Shown here piece by piece: positions 7,752-63,046 of a stretch of 64,000 nucleotides of DNA. The notes under the pieces are model-generated. The model was not told the origin of the DNA and ran no database searches. It saw only the letters and a program-made list of their open reading frames with translations. The translations under genes and the position numbers were made by a program. Location: the sequence record OQ599310; one strand, given 5' to 3'. The stretch's first letter is position 1, and each line of letters opens with the position of its first letter. This stretch comes from Escherichia phage 55.

Positions 7752-10700
7752 TTATGCTAAACGAACGATATAGTTAAAAGCAACGTTTTTAACTGTGTTT
7801 TCTGTATTTCCTGTGGCATTTACAGTTATTGTATGTCCATGGGAACCAATTGCAACAGTATGAGAATGAGCACCAATACCTACCGAATGGGTATGAGCAC
7901 CAATACCTACCGTATGAGCATGGTTACCCGTAGAGCTAGTAGTTCCTGACCAACTATGGGTGTGGGCACCGTCATTTGATGTTTTACCGACCTTAGTTGC
8001 TAAAGTCGAACCAGTGATACCTGAGTTAATTTTAGCATATGAGTTTGCACCTATCGTAGTAACCCCGTCTCTAAACAAACCGTCTGCCCATGCAGCAATG
8101 ACCTGTGGACCTGAACGCGCGTGTTGGTGAGCTCCTGCGGAACTAGTATTACCACTCACTGTATGGGTATGGTTACCAGTGGTATTACTGGTCTTAGTAC
8201 CATAATCAAATCTTGAAGTCGTTTTGCTACCGTAATCAAAACTAGAAGTGGTCTTAGTACCCAAATCTGTGCTTGATGCACTTGCACTATGGCTATGTGA
8301 CTTAACACCGTCTGCTTCTGTACTTAATACAGCGCGCCCAGATGGTTTACCCTTGATAGTTTGACCACGCATATCAGGCAGAGCGCCAGAAGGATACACC
8401 GCAGCTAACTTAGGATACAAGCCAGTATCAAATGTTTGGCCTTCCATTATGGCATAACCTTCAGGAGGTGTATCAGTAGGCCAAGGAATCGGAGCACCAA
8501 TTGGATAACTTGAGACAATATCAGTTTTAAGTGATTCAATTGTACTATTTAAGTTGGCAAAATTACCAGAACCACCAGTAATGTTACCGTCTGTACCTAA
8601 ATAAACTGAACCCCCAGCAGAAATGCGCTTAGGAGATATAAAATCACCAGAACGTGTAAATTCCCAGCCTAAATCTTTTATAGTTGCGCCTGTTGAACTT
8701 CCGTCTCCACCTTCATGATAATGAACTCTGAAGTTACCGCCATTTATTAAAGTACCTAAAGAATAACAGCTATTTCCTTGAACATAACGTTGTTTTAAAA
8801 TAGGAACGTAAGTACTTGTATCTGTGCGATTAATATTCATATAGAACGGAGCACGAACGTTTTCATTATTTTGTGAAGCAAAAGACCCTGCACCAGCCGG
8901 GCGAACGGTGTCAGTACATTCAGCATCAATATAAGCTGCTTGTCCTACCTGCATACGGTAATTAGGAGAAATACGACTATGACTAGTAACAACAACAAGT
9001 TTGTTATCATTGTCCACAGTAATCATATTACCGCCAGCGCCATCATCGCCTAACGTGACAGAATGGCGCATTTGTACCATACCATTATTAAGACTAATAC
9101 TTAATGGACGGAGATTGCTTATTCCACCTGATTCTCCAGCATCTTTAGGAGTCGGGATAATATGCAATGCCGCCTCTGAACGACGGAAAATAGCACCATA
9201 TTCAGCATTCCAAATTCTTAACGCATCTGCAGTTCCGCCAAACTTAGCCTGGCCATTTACTGTCATGCCATTATTAACACTCAAAGAAGATTCAGTTGTA
9301 ATAGAACCAGAAGCAACAATACTACCTGAAGTTAATAAACCGCCATTAACTCGGAATTGAATAGGTCCGACAGTAGAACCTACACCAGGAGCAACTCGTT
9401 GAGAATAAAAATGGTAACCTTGTCCATCTGATACTTCAAAAACTGTTTCACGGGAATGATCGCCAGATGCGTTAAAGGCATTACCCCATGCTTTAACAGT
9501 TACATAACTCTTATTCTGGCCTGCTCGAGTGCCGCCTTCCCAAAGGATTTGTTTGGTGCCATCAATCGTGGTAGTTGCTGAAAAAGTCAAACCTGCTGTT
9601 GAGTTATTAGCTGCTAAATATACGCCGTTATATATTGAAAGCTGCTTAACAGATGTAATACCGCCATCAGCATAAAACCTTACATTATTAGCGCCTGTTA
9701 CTAGTTTAAGAACACCGGGGTTAATTTCCATACCTTCTTGGGTATTAATATTCATTTGGCCTTTACCGCGGAAATAGTGCGACATTTTTCCACCAGAGTT
9801 ATAGCCAATATGCGTCCGACCGTCCCCTGCGTTATTCACATCCGCTTGAGTTTGGACTGATAAAAATGCAGCATTAGTACCAGGCATAATCCATGTAGTG
9901 CCTTGGTCTTCTGAACGTCCAAATAACGCTTTACGAGTACTACGGAAACTGTCAGGAGTAATAGAAGCAACAGAATAACCACCGCCAACTAAATCATAAA
10001 CTCCTTGTTTAATATATTTCAGACCTGTTACAGTGTCACCGAGAACAAGATACTTATCGCCCATTACACCGACGTTACCATAATCGCTAGACGGGAAATC
10101 TGTAGTGAATGTACCTAATGCAAGGCTATTACGGCCAGCCATTCGACCATCATTACGAATACCATACTGTTTTGACTGTGGAGTATTACCTGTCCACCAA
10201 GACATTTCATCAGCTTGGCCTAATTGAGCAGTACAAAGCTCATGCCACATAGTGCCACCGGATTTGGCACGAACTCTACGAAGATAGTTTACACCATTCG
10301 TTTCACCGGTGCCTGGGTATACATAGTTAACTAATGAATCCGTATCATATACACCAAAGGCTTTTCCACCGTGAATAACTGTATCAACTGCAATGCGTTT
10401 AGTTACTAACGAATCTGATGCTAAAATACGGTTAGCCTGAAATTCGCCTCCATTTATAGAACGGAAATAGAATTCACTATTAGTAGTGCTTCCTGTTCCT
10501 TGTCTAACCCTAAGGCGTATTTCACCATCAGTTGTAGTTTGAGGACGAGCATATATAACGCCTCGTTCAGTGCCATCGGCATTTTCAAACCATAAATGGG
10601 CATTTGCAGTATCGTTTGTTGCTCTTGTATAAAATGAACCCTGTGTAGATCTGAAAACTTTTGCAGTTACGCCATCAGTAGAACCAATTGGTCCGTTTAC

Positions 10701-10943
10701 AGTCATTCCACCTGTTTGTACATAATCGCCATTTAATCTCAAAAGTCCGTTAATAGTAACGTTGCCGTCAACTTGCCCGCCCTTAGCAAAGCCTAGGCTA
10801 ATAATATTACCGAGGTCATCTTTAGTAAAAAGAGTTCGATCCTTTAAGTTTATCGCTAATTCGCCTTCGGCTAATTGTGCTGCAGTAGGATTAACTCCTG
10901 CCACTTTGCTTCTTTTAAATTGTATCTGTTTTAATGTAGCCAT
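7752..10943 (-). CDS. 37: gp37 long tail fibre distal subunit (receptor-binding tip)
   Basis: 1063 aa; C-terminal His-x-His repeats ([25 protein letters not shown]) as in T4 gp37; position between 36 and 38. Confidence 0.93.
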
Positions 10944-18305: not shown

Positions 18306-18985
18306 AATACGTTGTGTATAAAACTACCAATAAAATAAATGGTAAAATTTATATAGGCGTACACAAAAAACATAAAGAGAAAGATTGGTATATTGGATCA
18401 GGCCGCGCTATATTAGCGGCCAAAGCTAAATATGGACTAAAAAATTTTTATACCGAAATTCTTTATGAATATGATAATGACAAGGACGCCTATAAAAAAG
18501 AAGCAGAATTGGTTAACGAAGATTTTGTTTTGCGAGATGATACTTATAACTTAGTTCCCGGTGGTAAAGGTGGTCCTGGTAAAAAACAAAGTGATGAAGC
18601 TAAAAGGTCTATTTCACTTTCTAAATTAGGTAAACCTAGATCTGAAGAGACTAAGGCTAAAGTATCTAAAACAAGACTAGAAAGAAAAATACCGTCACCT
18701 AATAAGGGTAAGAAACTATCTGAAGCTCACAAATTGGCCTTGAGTAAAGTCCGAAAAGGGCGAAAAACGAATAAGCCGATGCCTGATTCAACCAAAGAAG
18801 CTCTTAGAATAGCAAATTCAAAGCCGCATTCTAAAGAAAGAACTATTAAAAAACAAAAACCTATAATTATTGATGGTATAAAATACGCCTCGTGTAAAGA
18901 AGTTTCAAATGTTTTTAATATTTCTGCGTCTTTAGTTACATATAGACTTAAATCTTCAAAATGGTCCGGATGGAAATATGATTAA
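18302..18985 (+). CDS. GIY-YIG homing endonuclease (Seg/I-TevI-like), free-standing
   Basis: N-terminal GIY..YIG motifs (NGKIYIGVH ... WYIGSG), central Lys/Ser-rich NUMOD-like repeats, C-terminal helix-turn-helix-like segment; ATGA overlap with gene 33 stop and 8-bp overlap with gene 59 start. Confidence 0.85.
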   Translation: MKYVVYKTTNKINGKIYIGVHKKHKEKDWYIGSGRAILAAKAKYGLKNFYTEILYEYDNDKDAYKKEAELVNEDFVLRDDTYNLVPGGKGGPGKKQSDEAKRSISLSKLGKPRSEETKAKVSKTRLERKIPSPNKGKKLSEAHKLALSKVRKGRKTNKPMPDSTKEALRIANSKPHSKERTIKKQKPIIIDGIKYASCKEVSNVFNISASLVTYRLKSSKWSGWKYD

Positions 18986-19631
18986 AATACGCATGCCTCC
19001 TGATGGAGAACGTTATATTAATGGAAAATCGGTATATAAACTATACTTGATGTGCAAAAACCATTTTGGTGGTCGGTATGACGTAATCAAATATAACTGG
19101 TGCATGCGTGTTTCGGATAATGCGTATCAAAAACGCCGAGATAAATATTTCTTTGAGAAACTAGCAGAGAAATATAAGTTAAAGGAACTCACCTTGATAT
19201 TCATCAGTAACTTAGTTGCTAACCAAGATGCATGGATTGGTGAGATATCAGACGCTGATGCATTAGTTTTCTATAGGGAATATATTGGACGTCTCAAACA
19301 AGCCAAGGAGACGTTTGCCGAAGACATACGTAACATCTACTATTTCAGTAAGAAAGTGGAAGTTAGTGCGCTTCAAGAGATATTTGATTATAATAATAAA
19401 GTTCAGTCGAGCTACATATTTAAATTGCTACAAAGCAATATAATTTCATTTGAAACCTTCTTGTTGTTGGATTCATTCTTGAATATTATAGATAAGCATG
19501 ACGAACTTACTGACAATTTAGTCTGGCAAAATTATTCTACCAAATTAAAGGCATATCGAAAAATACTTCAAATCGATGGAAATGCTGCTAAGAAATTGTT
19601 CATAGAAACAATCAAATCATGTAAGTATTAA
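18978..19631 (+). CDS. 59: gp59 helicase loader
   Basis: 217 aa; near-identical to remembered T4 gp59 (DVIKYNWCMRVSD..AYQKRRDKYFF...SNLVANQDAWIG). Confidence 0.93.
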   Translation: MIKIRMPPDGERYINGKSVYKLYLMCKNHFGGRYDVIKYNWCMRVSDNAYQKRRDKYFFEKLAEKYKLKELTLIFISNLVANQDAWIGEISDADALVFYREYIGRLKQAKETFAEDIRNIYYFSKKVEVSALQEIFDYNNKVQSSYIFKLLQSNIISFETFLLLDSFLNIIDKHDELTDNLVWQNYSTKLKAYRKILQIDGNAAKKLFIETIKSCKY

Positions 19632-19660
19632 GCTTTATTTCTTGTGTGTTAAAATTACTT

Positions 19661-19668
19661 TATAAATA
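19661..19668 (+). promoter_or_regulatory. late promoter TATAAATA upstream of gene 32
   Basis: Exact TATAAATA at 19661-19668. Confidence 0.5.
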
Positions 19669-19678
19669 AATCATACCA

Positions 19679-19747
19679 GCTACGAGGTATAAGTGTCGTA
19701 GCAACCAACTGTAAATAAATTAAATAATCTAAATAAAGGTAAATATA
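19679..19747 (+). promoter_or_regulatory. gene 32 5' leader: hairpin (GCTACGA/TCGTAGC) plus A/U-rich repeats (UAAAUAAAUUAAAUAA), candidate translational operator
   Basis: Stem 19679-19685/19696-19702 followed by an unstructured A/U tract ending at the ATG; resembles the T4 gene 32 autoregulatory operator. Confidence 0.5.
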
Positions 19748-20695
19748 ATGTTTAAACGTAAATCTACTGCTGACCTCGCTGCTCAAATGGCTAAACTGAA
19801 CGGTAACAAAGGTTTCTCTTCAGAAGATAAAGGCGAATGGAAGCTGAAGCTAGATGCATCCGGTAATGGTCAAGCGGTAATTCGTTTCTTGCCAGCAAAA
19901 ACTGATGATGCACTACCATTTGCAATTCTTGTTAACCATGGTTTCAAGAAAAATGGTAAATGGTATATTGAAAATTGCTCTTCTACACATGGTGATTATG
20001 ACTCTTGTCCTGTATGTCAGTACATTATTAAAAATGACCTGTACAATACCAACAAAACTGAATATTCTCAACTGAAACGTAAAACTTCTTATTGGGCTAA
20101 TATTCTGGTTGTTAAAGACCCTCAAGCTCCAGATAATGAAGGTAAAGTATTTAAATATCGTTTCGGTAAAAAGATTTGGGACAAAATCAATGCAATGATT
20201 GCAGTTGATACCGAAATGGGTGAAACTCCAGTTGATGTTACTTGTCCGTTTGAAGGTGCTAACTTCGTTCTGAAAGCTAAGCAGGTTTCTGGTTTTAGCA
20301 ACTATGACGAATCTAAATTCTTGGGTCAATCTGAAATTCCTCGTATTAATGACGAAGCATTCCAGAAAGAACTATATGACCAGATGGTAGACCTTACTAC
20401 TTTGACGGCTAAAGACCAGTTCAAATCCTTTGAAAAATTAAATGAATCTTTCGCTAAGGTTCTTGGTACTGCCGCTCTTGGTGGTGCAGCAGCTGCAGCA
20501 GCTTCTGTTGCAGCAGCTGCAGCAGCTTCTGTTGCAGCTGCTGCAGCTTCTGTTGCAGATAAAGTTGCTTCTGACCTTGACGATTTTGATAAAGACATGG
20601 AAGCCTTTAGTTCTGCAAAAACTGAAGACGACTTCATGAGCTCTACCTCATCTTCTGATGACGGCGACCTCGATGACCTGTTAGCTGGTCTATAA
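19748..20695 (+). CDS. 32: gp32 single-stranded DNA-binding protein
   Basis: 315 aa; near-identical to remembered T4 gp32 with an expanded Ala-rich linker; acidic C-terminus ([12 protein letters not shown]). Confidence 0.95.
20486..20554 (+). repeat. in-frame tandem repeat, about 2.9 copies of a 24-bp unit (GCAGCAGCTGCAGCAGCTTCTGTT) encoding AAAAASVA
   Basis: Copies at 20486-20509, 20510-20533 and a 21-bp third copy 20534-20554, inside gene 32. Confidence 0.85.
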
Positions 20696-20701
20696 TAAAT
20701 T

Positions 20702-20719
20702 GGGAGACTTCGGTCTCCC
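20702..20719 (+). terminator. hairpin GGGAGAC-UUCG-GUCUCCC followed by TTTT, after gene 32
   Basis: Perfect 7-bp stem, UUCG loop, T-run. Confidence 0.7.
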
Positions 20720-20751
20720 TTTTGAGTATCTGTAAATTGCCGAAAAAAGTT

Positions 20752-20780
20752 GTTTACTTCTTTCCTAGATGTGTTACTAT
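20752..20780 (+). promoter_or_regulatory. T4-type early promoter (GTTTAC, 17 bp, TGTGTTACTAT)
   Basis: GTTTAC 20752-20757; TACTAT 20775-20780. Confidence 0.55.
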
Positions 20781-20810
20781 AGACCTATCAAAACAAATGA
20801 GGAAATCATA

Positions 20811-21173
20811 ATGGAAACCGGAAAAACGTACATCATCAACCCTGCATTTAAAGCTACCTTCGCTAACGAATGCCCACAAAATGCTGAAATGCTGTCTTTG
20901 ATTGAGCTTCATGGCCCTAGTTTTGTTGTAAAAGACATGAACACAGAGTACGACGATGATAAATGTGTAACACGTGTAACTATGCGAGACGGCACTGAAT
21001 TGGGTTTTGACGGTAAGCCGGGTTCATATTTTGAGCTTTATGACGATGAGTTCAAATACTTCATCGAGGTATCCCCAGAGTCTATTTCTAAACAGTCACT
21101 CATCTTTGAAGTTACTGAAGATAACGCCCGTGATGTGATTGCAGAAATTAAAGAAATTTTTGGAATAAAATAA
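20811..21173 (+). CDS. hypothetical early protein, paralogue A (120 aa)
   Basis: Start moved to ATG 20811 (SD gaggaaatcataATG); shares LIELHGPSFVV and FKYFIE motifs with the next gene. Confidence 0.55.
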   Translation: METGKTYIINPAFKATFANECPQNAEMLSLIELHGPSFVVKDMNTEYDDDKCVTRVTMRDGTELGFDGKPGSYFELYDDEFKYFIEVSPESISKQSLIFEVTEDNARDVIAEIKEIFGIK

Positions 21174-21198: not shown

Positions 21199-21603
21199 AT
21201 GGAAATCGGAAAATCTTATATCATTAGCCCTTTATTTAAAGACGACTTTGTTCAAGAAGCACCACATAATAACGCTAAGATGTTAAAACTGATTGAACTC
21301 CATGGGCCTAGTTTTGTTGTAAACGGAATGGAACCTGATTATGATAGCGATACGTCAAACGTAGTAAGTGTAACTATGGAAGATGGTACTGTATGTTCTG
21401 CCGGTGGTGGAATTGAAACTTATTTTGAGATTTATCCTGACGAGTTTAAATACTTTATTGAGTACTTTACTGAGGTAGATTTAGTAAAGCCTCAACCTAC
21501 TAACGAAGGTATAACTTTAGGTGTAACAAAAATCCATTGTATCGTAGATGAAACCAACGTCGACGAAATCATCAAACTTTTGCAAAAAACTTTTAAAAAG
21601 TAG
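21199..21603 (+). CDS. hypothetical early protein, paralogue B (134 aa)
   Basis: Same RBS context (aaatgaggaaatcaaaATG) and shared motifs with 20811-21173; tandem duplicate. Confidence 0.55.
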   Translation: MEIGKSYIISPLFKDDFVQEAPHNNAKMLKLIELHGPSFVVNGMEPDYDSDTSNVVSVTMEDGTVCSAGGGIETYFEIYPDEFKYFIEYFTEVDLVKPQPTNEGITLGVTKIHCIVDETNVDEIIKLLQKTFKK

Positions 21604-61744: not shown

Positions 61745-62386
61745 TTATAATGCTTTTAAACTCTCTGCGAGAGCTTTAAATGCTTCGTCAGCACTGTTTT
61801 TGGTGATTTCCACCGAATTTTCTGATTCTGATATTTGTTTAGGAGTAACCCAAGCATCTGGAGCAGAAGGTCCCCATACGGCATCTACACCGACGGTTAA
61901 TTTAAATCCTTCGTTCACGATACGGTACCCTTTATTGGTGTCGGTTAAAGAACCAAGACCACGAGAGGAAACACCTGGAATCCAACCAGCTCGTATATTA
62001 GCAGCTAATTTATCGCCGGGACCATGGTCGCCTTCAATAATTCTAGCACGTCCATATACATCGTTTCCTTTCCACCACATATCTTCAATAATGATAGCGG
62101 CTTGCATAGGGTCAACATTTGCACGAGGTGGATGGTTTAATTCTCCAAGGGCTTGTTTGGTTGCGACTTGTTCTTTAATATAGTCACTTACTGCTTTTTC
62201 CAAAACGCGTTTAGGATATAAACGTTTATTTCGGTTAACAACCTCTGCCTGAAGAAAAATACCTTCTATATAAAGCCCTGGTTTTAAGCCAGAATCTTTT
62301 CCATCATGAGATTCCAACATTGGAACGCCATCAATAATCTCACCGGGTTGACCCCAAGTTTCAATAAGTAACTCGGGTTTATTCAT
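61745..62386 (-). CDS. 21: gp21 prohead core protease
   Basis: 213 aa; size and position as T4 gp21. Confidence 0.9.
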   Translation of the reverse strand: MNKPELLIETWGQPGEIIDGVPMLESHDGKDSGLKPGLYIEGIFLQAEVVNRNKRLYPKRVLEKAVSDYIKEQVATKQALGELNHPPRANVDPMQAAIIIEDMWWKGNDVYGRARIIEGDHGPGDKLAANIRAGWIPGVSSRGLGSLTDTNKGYRIVNEGFKLTVGVDAVWGPSAPDAWVTPKQISESENSVEITKNSADEAFKALAESLKAL

Positions 62387-62811
62387 TAGCTTAATCCTAA
62401 TGCTTTACGACGTTTAAGAGCCTTTTTACGCTTACGCAGGCCTTTAACTTGGCCTGAAGGGTTAGCTTTTTTAGCTTTAACGACCTTACGAGCGATTTGT
62501 CTACGTTTTGCTTTAGAAAGACCAGTGGTTTGGAACGCGTTACGTTCACGAGTTTTACGGTCTTTAGTGCGGGTGACTTCACCACGAGAAGAAACATGTT
62601 TAACGATAAACTCATTTAACTGTTCTTCATTAATAATGGAAGCCATTGCAACAGCTAAATCCGTTTCAGTTTCAAGCATGTTCTCGATAATAGTATTTAT
62701 ATCGTCAATATCGAGAGCAGAAGACAATGCATCGATTCGGCCCTGTGCTTCAGGAATAAGTGCTTCGACATTTTCGAGTACCAATTCATAAGATTCAGGG
62801 ATAAGATACAT
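62386..62811 (-). CDS. 68: gp68 prohead core protein
   Basis: 141 aa, as T4 gp68. Confidence 0.85.
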
Positions 62812-63046
62812 TATTCATCGTCCTCATCATCTTCGTCTTCGTCGTCATCGCCTTCATCAGCGTCGTCTTCCGAAGCTTTAGCTTTCTTTTCTTCTTCAGG
62901 TTCTTCGCCTTCAATCAAAAATTGAGAAGCGATTTCTGCTTTGCGTGCTTCAATCAAACGAACCGTTTTTTCTGCCATTGCACTTTCAAAAAACTTTCGA
63001 GTAGCAACGAGGTCGTTTGATTTAATAGCTTGAATTAAATCGTCCA

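Follow-up and report, generated by a model that had tools for sequence, protein, structure and literature searches.

Gene 32 of Escherichia phage 55 encodes gp32, a protein that binds single-stranded DNA and in which the alanine-rich hinge leading from the ssDNA-binding core to the acidic C-terminal domain is built from three tandem copies of a short unit. Only two states of this segment were encountered: each of the relatives examined has a single unit, and phage 55 alone has three. Compared to every one of these relatives, the array is a 45-bp insertion that adds 15 residues to gp32. It most likely represents a recent, lineage-specific duplication, by slippage or unequal recombination, that followed the loss of a synonymous codon interruption and that is tolerated as nothing other than the lengthening of a flexible tether.

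The array occupies positions 20486-20554 of the window, by which we mean the whole stretch of 64,000 nucleotides that was analyzed, and all three copies are in frame 0 of the gene 32 open reading frame (ORF). Copy 1 (20486-20509, + strand; GCAGCAGCTGCAGCAGCTTCTGTT) is a 24-bp unit encoding AAAAAASV at residues 247-254, which correspond to residues 247-254 of T4 gp32. Copy 2 (20510-20533, + strand; GCAGCAGCTGCAGCAGCTTCTGTT) is likewise 24 bp long, is 100% identical to copy 1, and encodes residues 255-262. Copy 3 (20534-20554, + strand; GCAGCTGCTGCAGCTTCTGTT) comprises 21 bp and encodes AAAAASV at residues 263-269. It differs from the unit by one synonymous A-to-T substitution at 20539 and by the deletion of one GCA codon (codon 4 or 5), and introducing this substitution and this codon deletion into the unit reproduces copy 3 exactly, which confirms its derivation. 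The 24-mer itself is composed of a perfect (GCAGCAGCT)x2 tract followed by TCTGTT.

Tandem Repeats Finder (TRF) assigns the array a period of 24, 2.8 copies, 95% matches and a score of 111, which is the top score within the 64-kb window. When as many as three mismatches are permitted, the 24-mer occurs three times, each time in the array, against 0.00 occurrences expected from 100 dinucleotide-preserving shuffles. With two exact 24-mers and one 21-mer arranged head to tail, the segment is a tandem repeat in the usual sense of at least two such copies. An earlier sequence-only reading had described an in-frame 24-bp repeat of nearly three copies at precisely these coordinates, and the AAAAASVA unit that it named is a cyclic rotation of AAAAAASV.

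Other repeats are present in the window. The second-best tandem repeat, at 7858-7922 (27 bp, 2.4 copies, score 102), is located inside a 1063-aa ORF (7752..10943, - strand) and encodes repeated His-x-His boxes near the C-terminus of a product that we take to resemble the long-tail-fibre distal subunit gp37. At 62815-62870, coded on the - strand, there is an Asp/Glu-rich repeat of the triplet type (beginning TCATCGTCG, with periods of 9, 15 and 21) that resides directly upstream of a 141-aa ORF (62386-62811) in the prohead-core gene cluster, and that probably encodes the acidic tail of a core protein resembling gp67.

The 315-aa product of gene 32 (19748..20695, + strand) matches Pfam family PF08804 with an E-value of 2.5e-60 and 204.5 bits (cutoff 26.8), a match that extends over residues 39-238 of the protein and over positions 1-207 of the 208 in the profile. 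It aligns with full-length T4 gp32 (8GME) at E=4.9e-149 and with the RB69 gp32 core (2A1K) at E=1.7e-144. T4 gp32 (8GME, with Dda; 1GPC, core), RB69 gp32 (2A1K/2ATQ, core) and phage 55 gp32 belong to the same family and exhibit the same architecture, which includes a LAST motif, a Zn-binding OB-fold core, an Ala-rich hinge, an ADKVxxDLDxF helix and an acidic tail. In phage 55, the N-terminal LAST motif KRKST is present and, like the Zn ligands H64, C77, C87 and C90, falls in invariant columns of the 62-sequence family alignment, and the acidic C-terminal domain carries the partner-binding helix with V273, L277 and F280 together with a DLDDLL-type tail. Given its ~80% identity to T4 gp32, the protein would be expected to bind ssDNA cooperatively and with kinetics gated by the C-domain. 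The sequence is identical to WEW54176.1, which is annotated as ‘putative single-stranded DNA binding protein [Escherichia phage 55]’.

Phage 55 is a Mosigvirus (an RB69-like T-even phage) with a GC content of 37.9% and with ~96% identity over 22 kb to phiEC1 and SA79RD. The ‘Phage 55’ described in PMC7494930 is a different phage, a Tequatrovirus of 35.6% GC that is closest to T4. Two additional stop-free ORFs overlap the repeat, one antisense (20326-20637, - strand, 103 aa) and the other in the +2 frame (20442-20639, + strand, 65 aa, Q/L-rich), and we treated both as unsupported by-products of GCN/CTG composition rather than as genes. Among the database entries assigned to gp32, three are over-long. 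The first of these, P0038 (phiC600P9, 392 aa), carries both PF08804 and PF05798 and looks like a fusion, by read-through, to the Frd-region gene that lies downstream, and the two metaclust entries P0016 and P0055 (528 and 440 aa) list many unrelated Pfam families and appear to be chimeric.

The genomic setting is also T-even-like, with gene 59 upstream, a pseudoknot in the leader and a terminator downstream. An ORF of 217 aa at 18978-19631 is the counterpart of what is annotated as gp59 in relatives. Upstream of gene 32, the autoregulatory leader can form an H-type pseudoknot (19673-19702) in which ATACC (19673-19677) pairs with GGTAT (19686-19690) and GCTACGA (19679-19685) pairs with TCGTAGC (19696-19702), followed by an AU-rich tract of UAAA-type repeats (19712-19737; TRF period 9, 2.9 copies). 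On visual inspection, compensatory changes are seen in the two stems when T-even loci are compared, the paired segments being TGACC/GGTCA and GCTATGA/TCATAGC in locus L009, ATGCC/GGCAT and GATGTGA/TCACATC in L019, TACC/GGTA and GATGCAA/TTGCATC in L022, and, for one stem, GTCC/GGAC in L015. We take this pseudoknot to be the counterpart of the known translational operator of T4 gene 32. No Rfam family matched the leader when positions 19400-20900 were searched with a permissive E-value.

Gene 32 ends in a double stop, TAATAA, directly followed by an intrinsic terminator (20702-20723) composed of a 7-bp stem (GGGAGAC/GTCTCCC), a TTCG tetraloop and a TTTT run, and another hairpin (GGGGACC/GGTCCCC) occupies this site in the T4-like locus L006. 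Farther downstream lies a Frd.2-like pair of genes, as in relatives. These two ORFs (20812-21173 and 21199-21603, + strand) are adjacent paralogues of about 120-134 aa that have in common the motifs ‘GK(T/S)YII(N/S)P.FK’, ‘LIELHGPSFVV’ and ‘DEFKYFIE’, and the pair looks like a tandem gene duplication. The annotation of phage JS09 describes the counterpart of the first ORF as Frd.2-like.

Alignment with T4 gp32 (8GME) confirms the original proposal that the repeat separates the ssDNA-binding core from the acidic C-terminal tail. The T4 hinge reads GG-AAATAAKK-ADKV, and the repeat unit corresponds to T4 residues 247-254. As the sequence-only reading stated, T4 has a single shorter Ala-rich stretch: it is GGAAATAAKKAD, with the length of the single-unit Mosigvirus form, whose hinge is exactly as long as T4 GGAAATAAKKADKV. 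The further claim that the Ala-rich linker is expanded in phage 55 also holds, given that three units stand where T4 has one and that the protein measures 315 aa compared to 299-301 aa.

The boundary between the core and the C-domain of T4 gp32 has been placed at 253/254 (PMC5892887; PMC12893549), and a T4 gp32 peptide comprising residues 248-270 binds the helicase Dda (He et al. 2024; PMC11551737). Residues 250-264 of T4 gp32 form an alpha-helix, the key contacts with Dda are made by V258, L262 and F265, and peptides 240-253 and 240-255 exhibit no Dda binding (PMC11551737). In phage 55, the alignment to 8GME places the corresponding conserved amphipathic helix motif at 20555..20587 (+ strand, residues 270-280), where V273, L277 and F280 are the equivalents of T4 V258, L262 and F265. 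Thus, the Dda-contact residues are unchanged and are merely shifted by +15. In the family alignment, conservation reaches 90% or more at four positions of this motif (A270, D271, L277 and F280).

The array sits immediately N-terminal to this Dda-binding helix. Because a tandem duplication regenerates both of its junctions, the residues that precede the helix are still AAAAASV, and the protein junctions on the core side and on the C-domain side are both preserved despite the array. The 15 extra residues would span ~22 Å if helical and up to ~54 Å if extended. AlphaFold2, when supplied with the 62-sequence alignment, predicts the core with confidence, renders residues 241-261 (which take in copies 1 and 2) as coil with pLDDT values below 50, and predicts a helix at 262-289 that takes in copy 3 and the downstream conserved segment. 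The low-confidence coil is consistent with a flexible tether, albeit weakly so, since the alignment offers no homologues for the inserted positions.

Comparison with the single-copy alleles suggests how the array may have originated. A GCC interruption is present among the six Ala codons in all eight single-copy alleles that were read at the DNA level, and it is located at codon 3 in L001, phiEC1, PECP20, JS09, RB69 and SF, and at codon 4 in PhAPEC2 and ESCO47. Compared at window position 20497, two types of single-copy Ala6 allele therefore coexist in Mosigvirus, and the type with GCC at codon 3 is the majority. The 24-mers of phage 55 are without GCC and carry GCT and GCA at codons 3 and 4. 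PhAPEC2 is the best match to the phage 55 allele when the array is collapsed to one unit, with one mismatch that falls at the GCC codon. Furthermore, a microhomology of 5 nt, TGCAG, brackets the ancestral single unit. Its left member is at 20485..20489 (+ strand) and its right member is T20554 plus GCAG 20555-20558 (+ strand); four of the five nucleotides, GCAG, are common to the unit start and the right flank, and one, T, is common to the unit end and the left flank.

We propose that, at the core/C-domain hinge, the ancestral gene 32 had just one copy of the 24-bp unit for AAAAAASV, and that the synonymous GCC interruption was then lost in the phage 55 lineage to yield the perfect (GCAGCAGCT)x2 tract. 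Either a point mutation or a recombination event involving the two Mosigvirus allele types could have created this uninterrupted tract. The 24-bp unit would next have been duplicated, most likely by replication slippage or by illegitimate recombination between the flanking TGCAG sequences, and once two perfect 24-mers were present a third copy would have been gained more easily. Copy 3 would have undergone its synonymous substitution and its 3-bp contraction afterwards. No record matched at 100% a single-unit precursor that lacks the interruption (GGTGGT followed by GCAGCAGCTGCAGCAGCTTCTGTTGCAGAT), and a two-copy intermediate was not found in any collection searched, and for this reason we can only infer the order of these events. 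The identity of copies 1 and 2 indicates that the expansion is recent, and the changes that copy 3 has undergone, a substitution and the loss of a codon, indicate that the array has nevertheless persisted for some time.

This proposed history has parallels elsewhere. Eukaryotic polyalanine (GCN) tracts undergo expansion, and repeats can become unstable through the loss of an interruption. The phage 55 array is similar in that it is an in-frame expansion of an imperfect GCN Ala tract after loss of a synonymous GCC, but its unit is a 24-bp Ala6-Ser-Val block in a phage replicon, and neither pathology nor aggregation is implied. Duplications by slippage or microhomology, along with mutations templated by quasi-palindromes, were reportedly described for T4 rII by Streisinger and by Ripley and co-workers. 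The tandem duplication in phage 55 is likewise bounded by a short direct repeat, TGCAG, although here the mechanism is deduced from sequence only.

The +15 allele must be functional, because phage 55 is represented by a complete genome record of 170,393 bp and because gene 32 is essential in T4. On our reading, the allele is tolerated and is probably neutral or mildly deleterious. However, the strict length conservation among relatives suggests that a constraint has been broken by the +15 allele, which may come with a cost or with a compensating benefit. Such a benefit is the basis of the strongest alternative, wherein the longer hinge was itself selected, perhaps due to altered occlusion of the cleft by the C-domain, altered reach toward partners (Dda, gp59 or polymerase) or altered sensing by host defences. 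E. coli SSB, which carries a disordered low-complexity tether between its OB-fold ssDNA-binding core and its acidic partner-binding tip, is alike in that autoinhibition and the reach toward partners could be tuned by the length of the tether. SSB differs, however, in belonging to an unrelated family with another fold arrangement and in being a homotetramer, whereas gp32 is a cooperative monomer.

Several observations are in agreement with selection for a longer hinge. The segment is strongly length-conserved elsewhere, which makes a viable outlier noteworthy, and the two further mutations in copy 3 mean that the array has outlasted a single event. Moreover, the C-domain is known to regulate ssDNA binding by an intramolecular closed/open transition (PMC5892887; PMC12424635), and the region 227-253 has been implicated in cooperativity (PMC12893549). 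On the other hand, the expansion has occurred once, with no parallel expansions found in the other lineages examined, the identical 24-bp units indicate a recent event, and the added residues are predicted by AlphaFold2 to be coil of low confidence. We consider it quite unlikely that the longer hinge was selected, and a shade less likely again that an adaptive tether-length mutant (acting through C-domain gating, replisome reach or escape from host defence) is combined with an array that serves as a nascent contingency locus. Tolerance of a recent duplication continues to be the reading that we prefer.

The sequence-only reading had also anticipated that the array is a likely polymorphic site, and this expectation was not borne out by the relatives. 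When 106 bp spanning the array were used as the query, matches were obtained in 152 Mosigvirus records, which were ranked by coverage x identity such that a multi-copy record would rank first, and the best 40 of the 152 all align over 61 bp of the query. One unit can thus be assigned to all 152 ranked records, in part by this ranking logic rather than by inspection of each one. A spread sample of Mosigvirus records again revealed the 45-bp deficit across the array. When the array was collapsed to one unit in silico, the alignment to the records listed became ungapped (176/176 bp), and 149 of the 151 records matched by the collapsed query were covered at 80% or more. The whole of gene 32 measures 903 or 900 bp in the best 60 relatives versus 948 bp in phage 55, and the 90% protein cluster contains members of 299-302 aa together with one protein of 315 aa (40 of 59 members read).

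More distant relatives yielded the same picture. In the T4 group, 59 of 59 full-length records, evenly sampled from 498, align without gaps (181/181 bp) across the segment. The spacing between the GG and A-D anchors is identical in 123 of 127 gp32 proteins, down to ~54% identity, and the other four deviate by 2-3 residues; an insertion at T4 247-254 was seen in no gp32 examined other than that of phage 55, where it amounts to 15 residues. Length variation in the C-terminal third instead falls downstream of the DxFDxDM motif, away from the hinge. By these alignments, the hinge segment appears to be among the most length-conserved parts of the C-terminal third, with phage 55 as the lone outlier, which is the opposite of what is expected for a freely slipping linker. 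Bacterial SSB linkers, in contrast to this nearly length-invariant hinge, vary widely in length between species.

Searches of IMG/VR and metagenome contigs did not uncover a gp32 allele with two or more units. A strict junction pattern gave 0 matches in these collections, and a degenerate junction pattern matched at 12 places, none of them gp32. These 12 matches are unrelated Ala/Ser/Val low-complexity tracts in which tblastn revealed no homology to gp32. The only near-identical IMG/VR contig (L001) carries one unit. In addition, our search of the literature found no gene 32 tandem duplications in T4-like phages.

These data bear on the possibility that the gp32 linker behaves as a variable-number tandem repeat, whose copy number would generally vary among isolates via frequent slippage. 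Phage 55 does have two units more than its relatives, and its 48-bp perfect direct repeat should slip more than the ancestral single unit, such that the three-copy array itself is plausibly slippage-prone. Several copy-number alleles among related isolates, as expected of such a locus, were not found. The idea that identical repeat number throughout would argue against polymorphism can be answered in two parts: the number is identical among the relatives examined, and only phage 55 itself departs from it. Given that the listed Mosigvirus records carry one unit under a ranking that favours multi-copy records, that the T4-group segments are ungapped, and that no spacing other than that of phage 55 deviates by more than 3 residues, a generally variable linker is highly improbable, and this reading is largely refuted at the level of the population.

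Similarly improbable, to about the same degree, is that the real phage has one unit and that the 45-bp insertion was created in silico by a sequencing or assembly error. The allele is known from one contig and one source, and the WEW54176.1 protein was found in NCBI only, being absent from Logan and from SRA-derived assemblies. However, the 69-bp array is shorter than an ordinary read, so there is no ambiguity of collapse or expansion, and the insertion is exactly in frame. Copy 3 is diverged by a substitution and a 3-bp deletion, and hence the insertion is not a clean duplication of k-mer length. Furthermore, the array is missing the GCC codon, unlike all database alleles, and an assembly error would not produce this difference.

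Finally, we examined the array as a nucleic acid. The unit is rich in overlapping palindromes (GCAGCTGC and GCTGCAGC), and copies 2 and 3 are predicted to pair with each other in an imperfect hairpin of 19 base pairs (20507..20547, + strand). As RNA, positions 20471-20575 fold with a predicted energy of -61.9 kcal/mol (z=-4.39; a stability reached by 0 of 200 shuffles), and 54% of the ensemble is accounted for by the minimum-energy structure. The corresponding z values are -0.03 for the common single-copy allele and -1.5 for the collapsed, uninterrupted allele. However, an array of three exact units folds equally well (-62.3 versus -61.9 kcal/mol), which indicates that the hairpin is a generic by-product of the repeating unit. 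The fold computed with DNA parameters (-29.4 kcal/mol) is not significant relative to dinucleotide shuffles (z=-1.34), and on this ground we rejected a DNA hairpin as the driver of slippage. Rfam returned 28 matches for 19400-20900, nearly all of them on the repeat, with scores of 16-31 bits compared to gathering scores of 40-112, and we regard those to miRNA, sRNA and snoRNA families as noise from low complexity or palindromes.

The substitution in copy 3 has a feature that simple slippage leaves unexplained. The T at 20539 turns an A.A mismatch in the hairpin between copies 2 and 3 into a base pair, as is predicted for a templated correction of the kind attributed to T4 rII. It is tied for first among the 72 possible substitutions in its stabilization of the RNA, is first of 63 on the background that carries the deletion, and comes first or second among the synonymous changes, whichever parameter set is used. 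These results are suggestive of a quasi-palindrome-templated mutation, with the proviso that the ranking is post hoc and concerns a single event, and they hint at a role for nucleic-acid structure, for example in templating mutation. The substitution stabilizes the hairpin by 5.1 kcal/mol and the copy-3 deletion costs +5.5 kcal/mol, so templating can explain at most one of the two changes. We likewise rejected the notion that both changes optimize the hairpin, because the deletion cancels the gain and the net effect relative to three exact units is nil. Least probable of all the alternatives, and only barely worth entertaining, is that the array acts as a structure in its own right (an mRNA hairpin that influences how gene 32 is translated or how stable its transcript is, or a quasi-palindrome in the DNA) rather than through the protein, given that the low z value and the high-ranking substitution in its favour are offset by the equal folding of exact units, the insignificant DNA fold, the absence from all relatives of any such structure that could be conserved, and the Rfam scores far below gathering thresholds.

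Gp32 is the textbook single-stranded DNA-binding protein. We describe here no new system and no hypervariable locus, but rather a new allele of a very well-known protein, whose value is correspondingly modest. Current work on gp32 focuses on the disordered C-domain, on its gating of DNA binding and on the recruitment of partners (PMC5892887, PMC12424635, PMC11551737, PMC12893549). The length of the hinge at T4 residues 247-254 is nearly fixed in hundreds of T-even genomes, and phage 55 is one viable natural exception, by 15 residues, in which the Dda-binding helix is intact. The gene thereby offers a small, clean example, from a phage, of a tract that most likely expanded in tandem after a codon interruption had been lost, and its product is a ready-made natural tether-length variant for the closed/open model of the gp32 C-domain.
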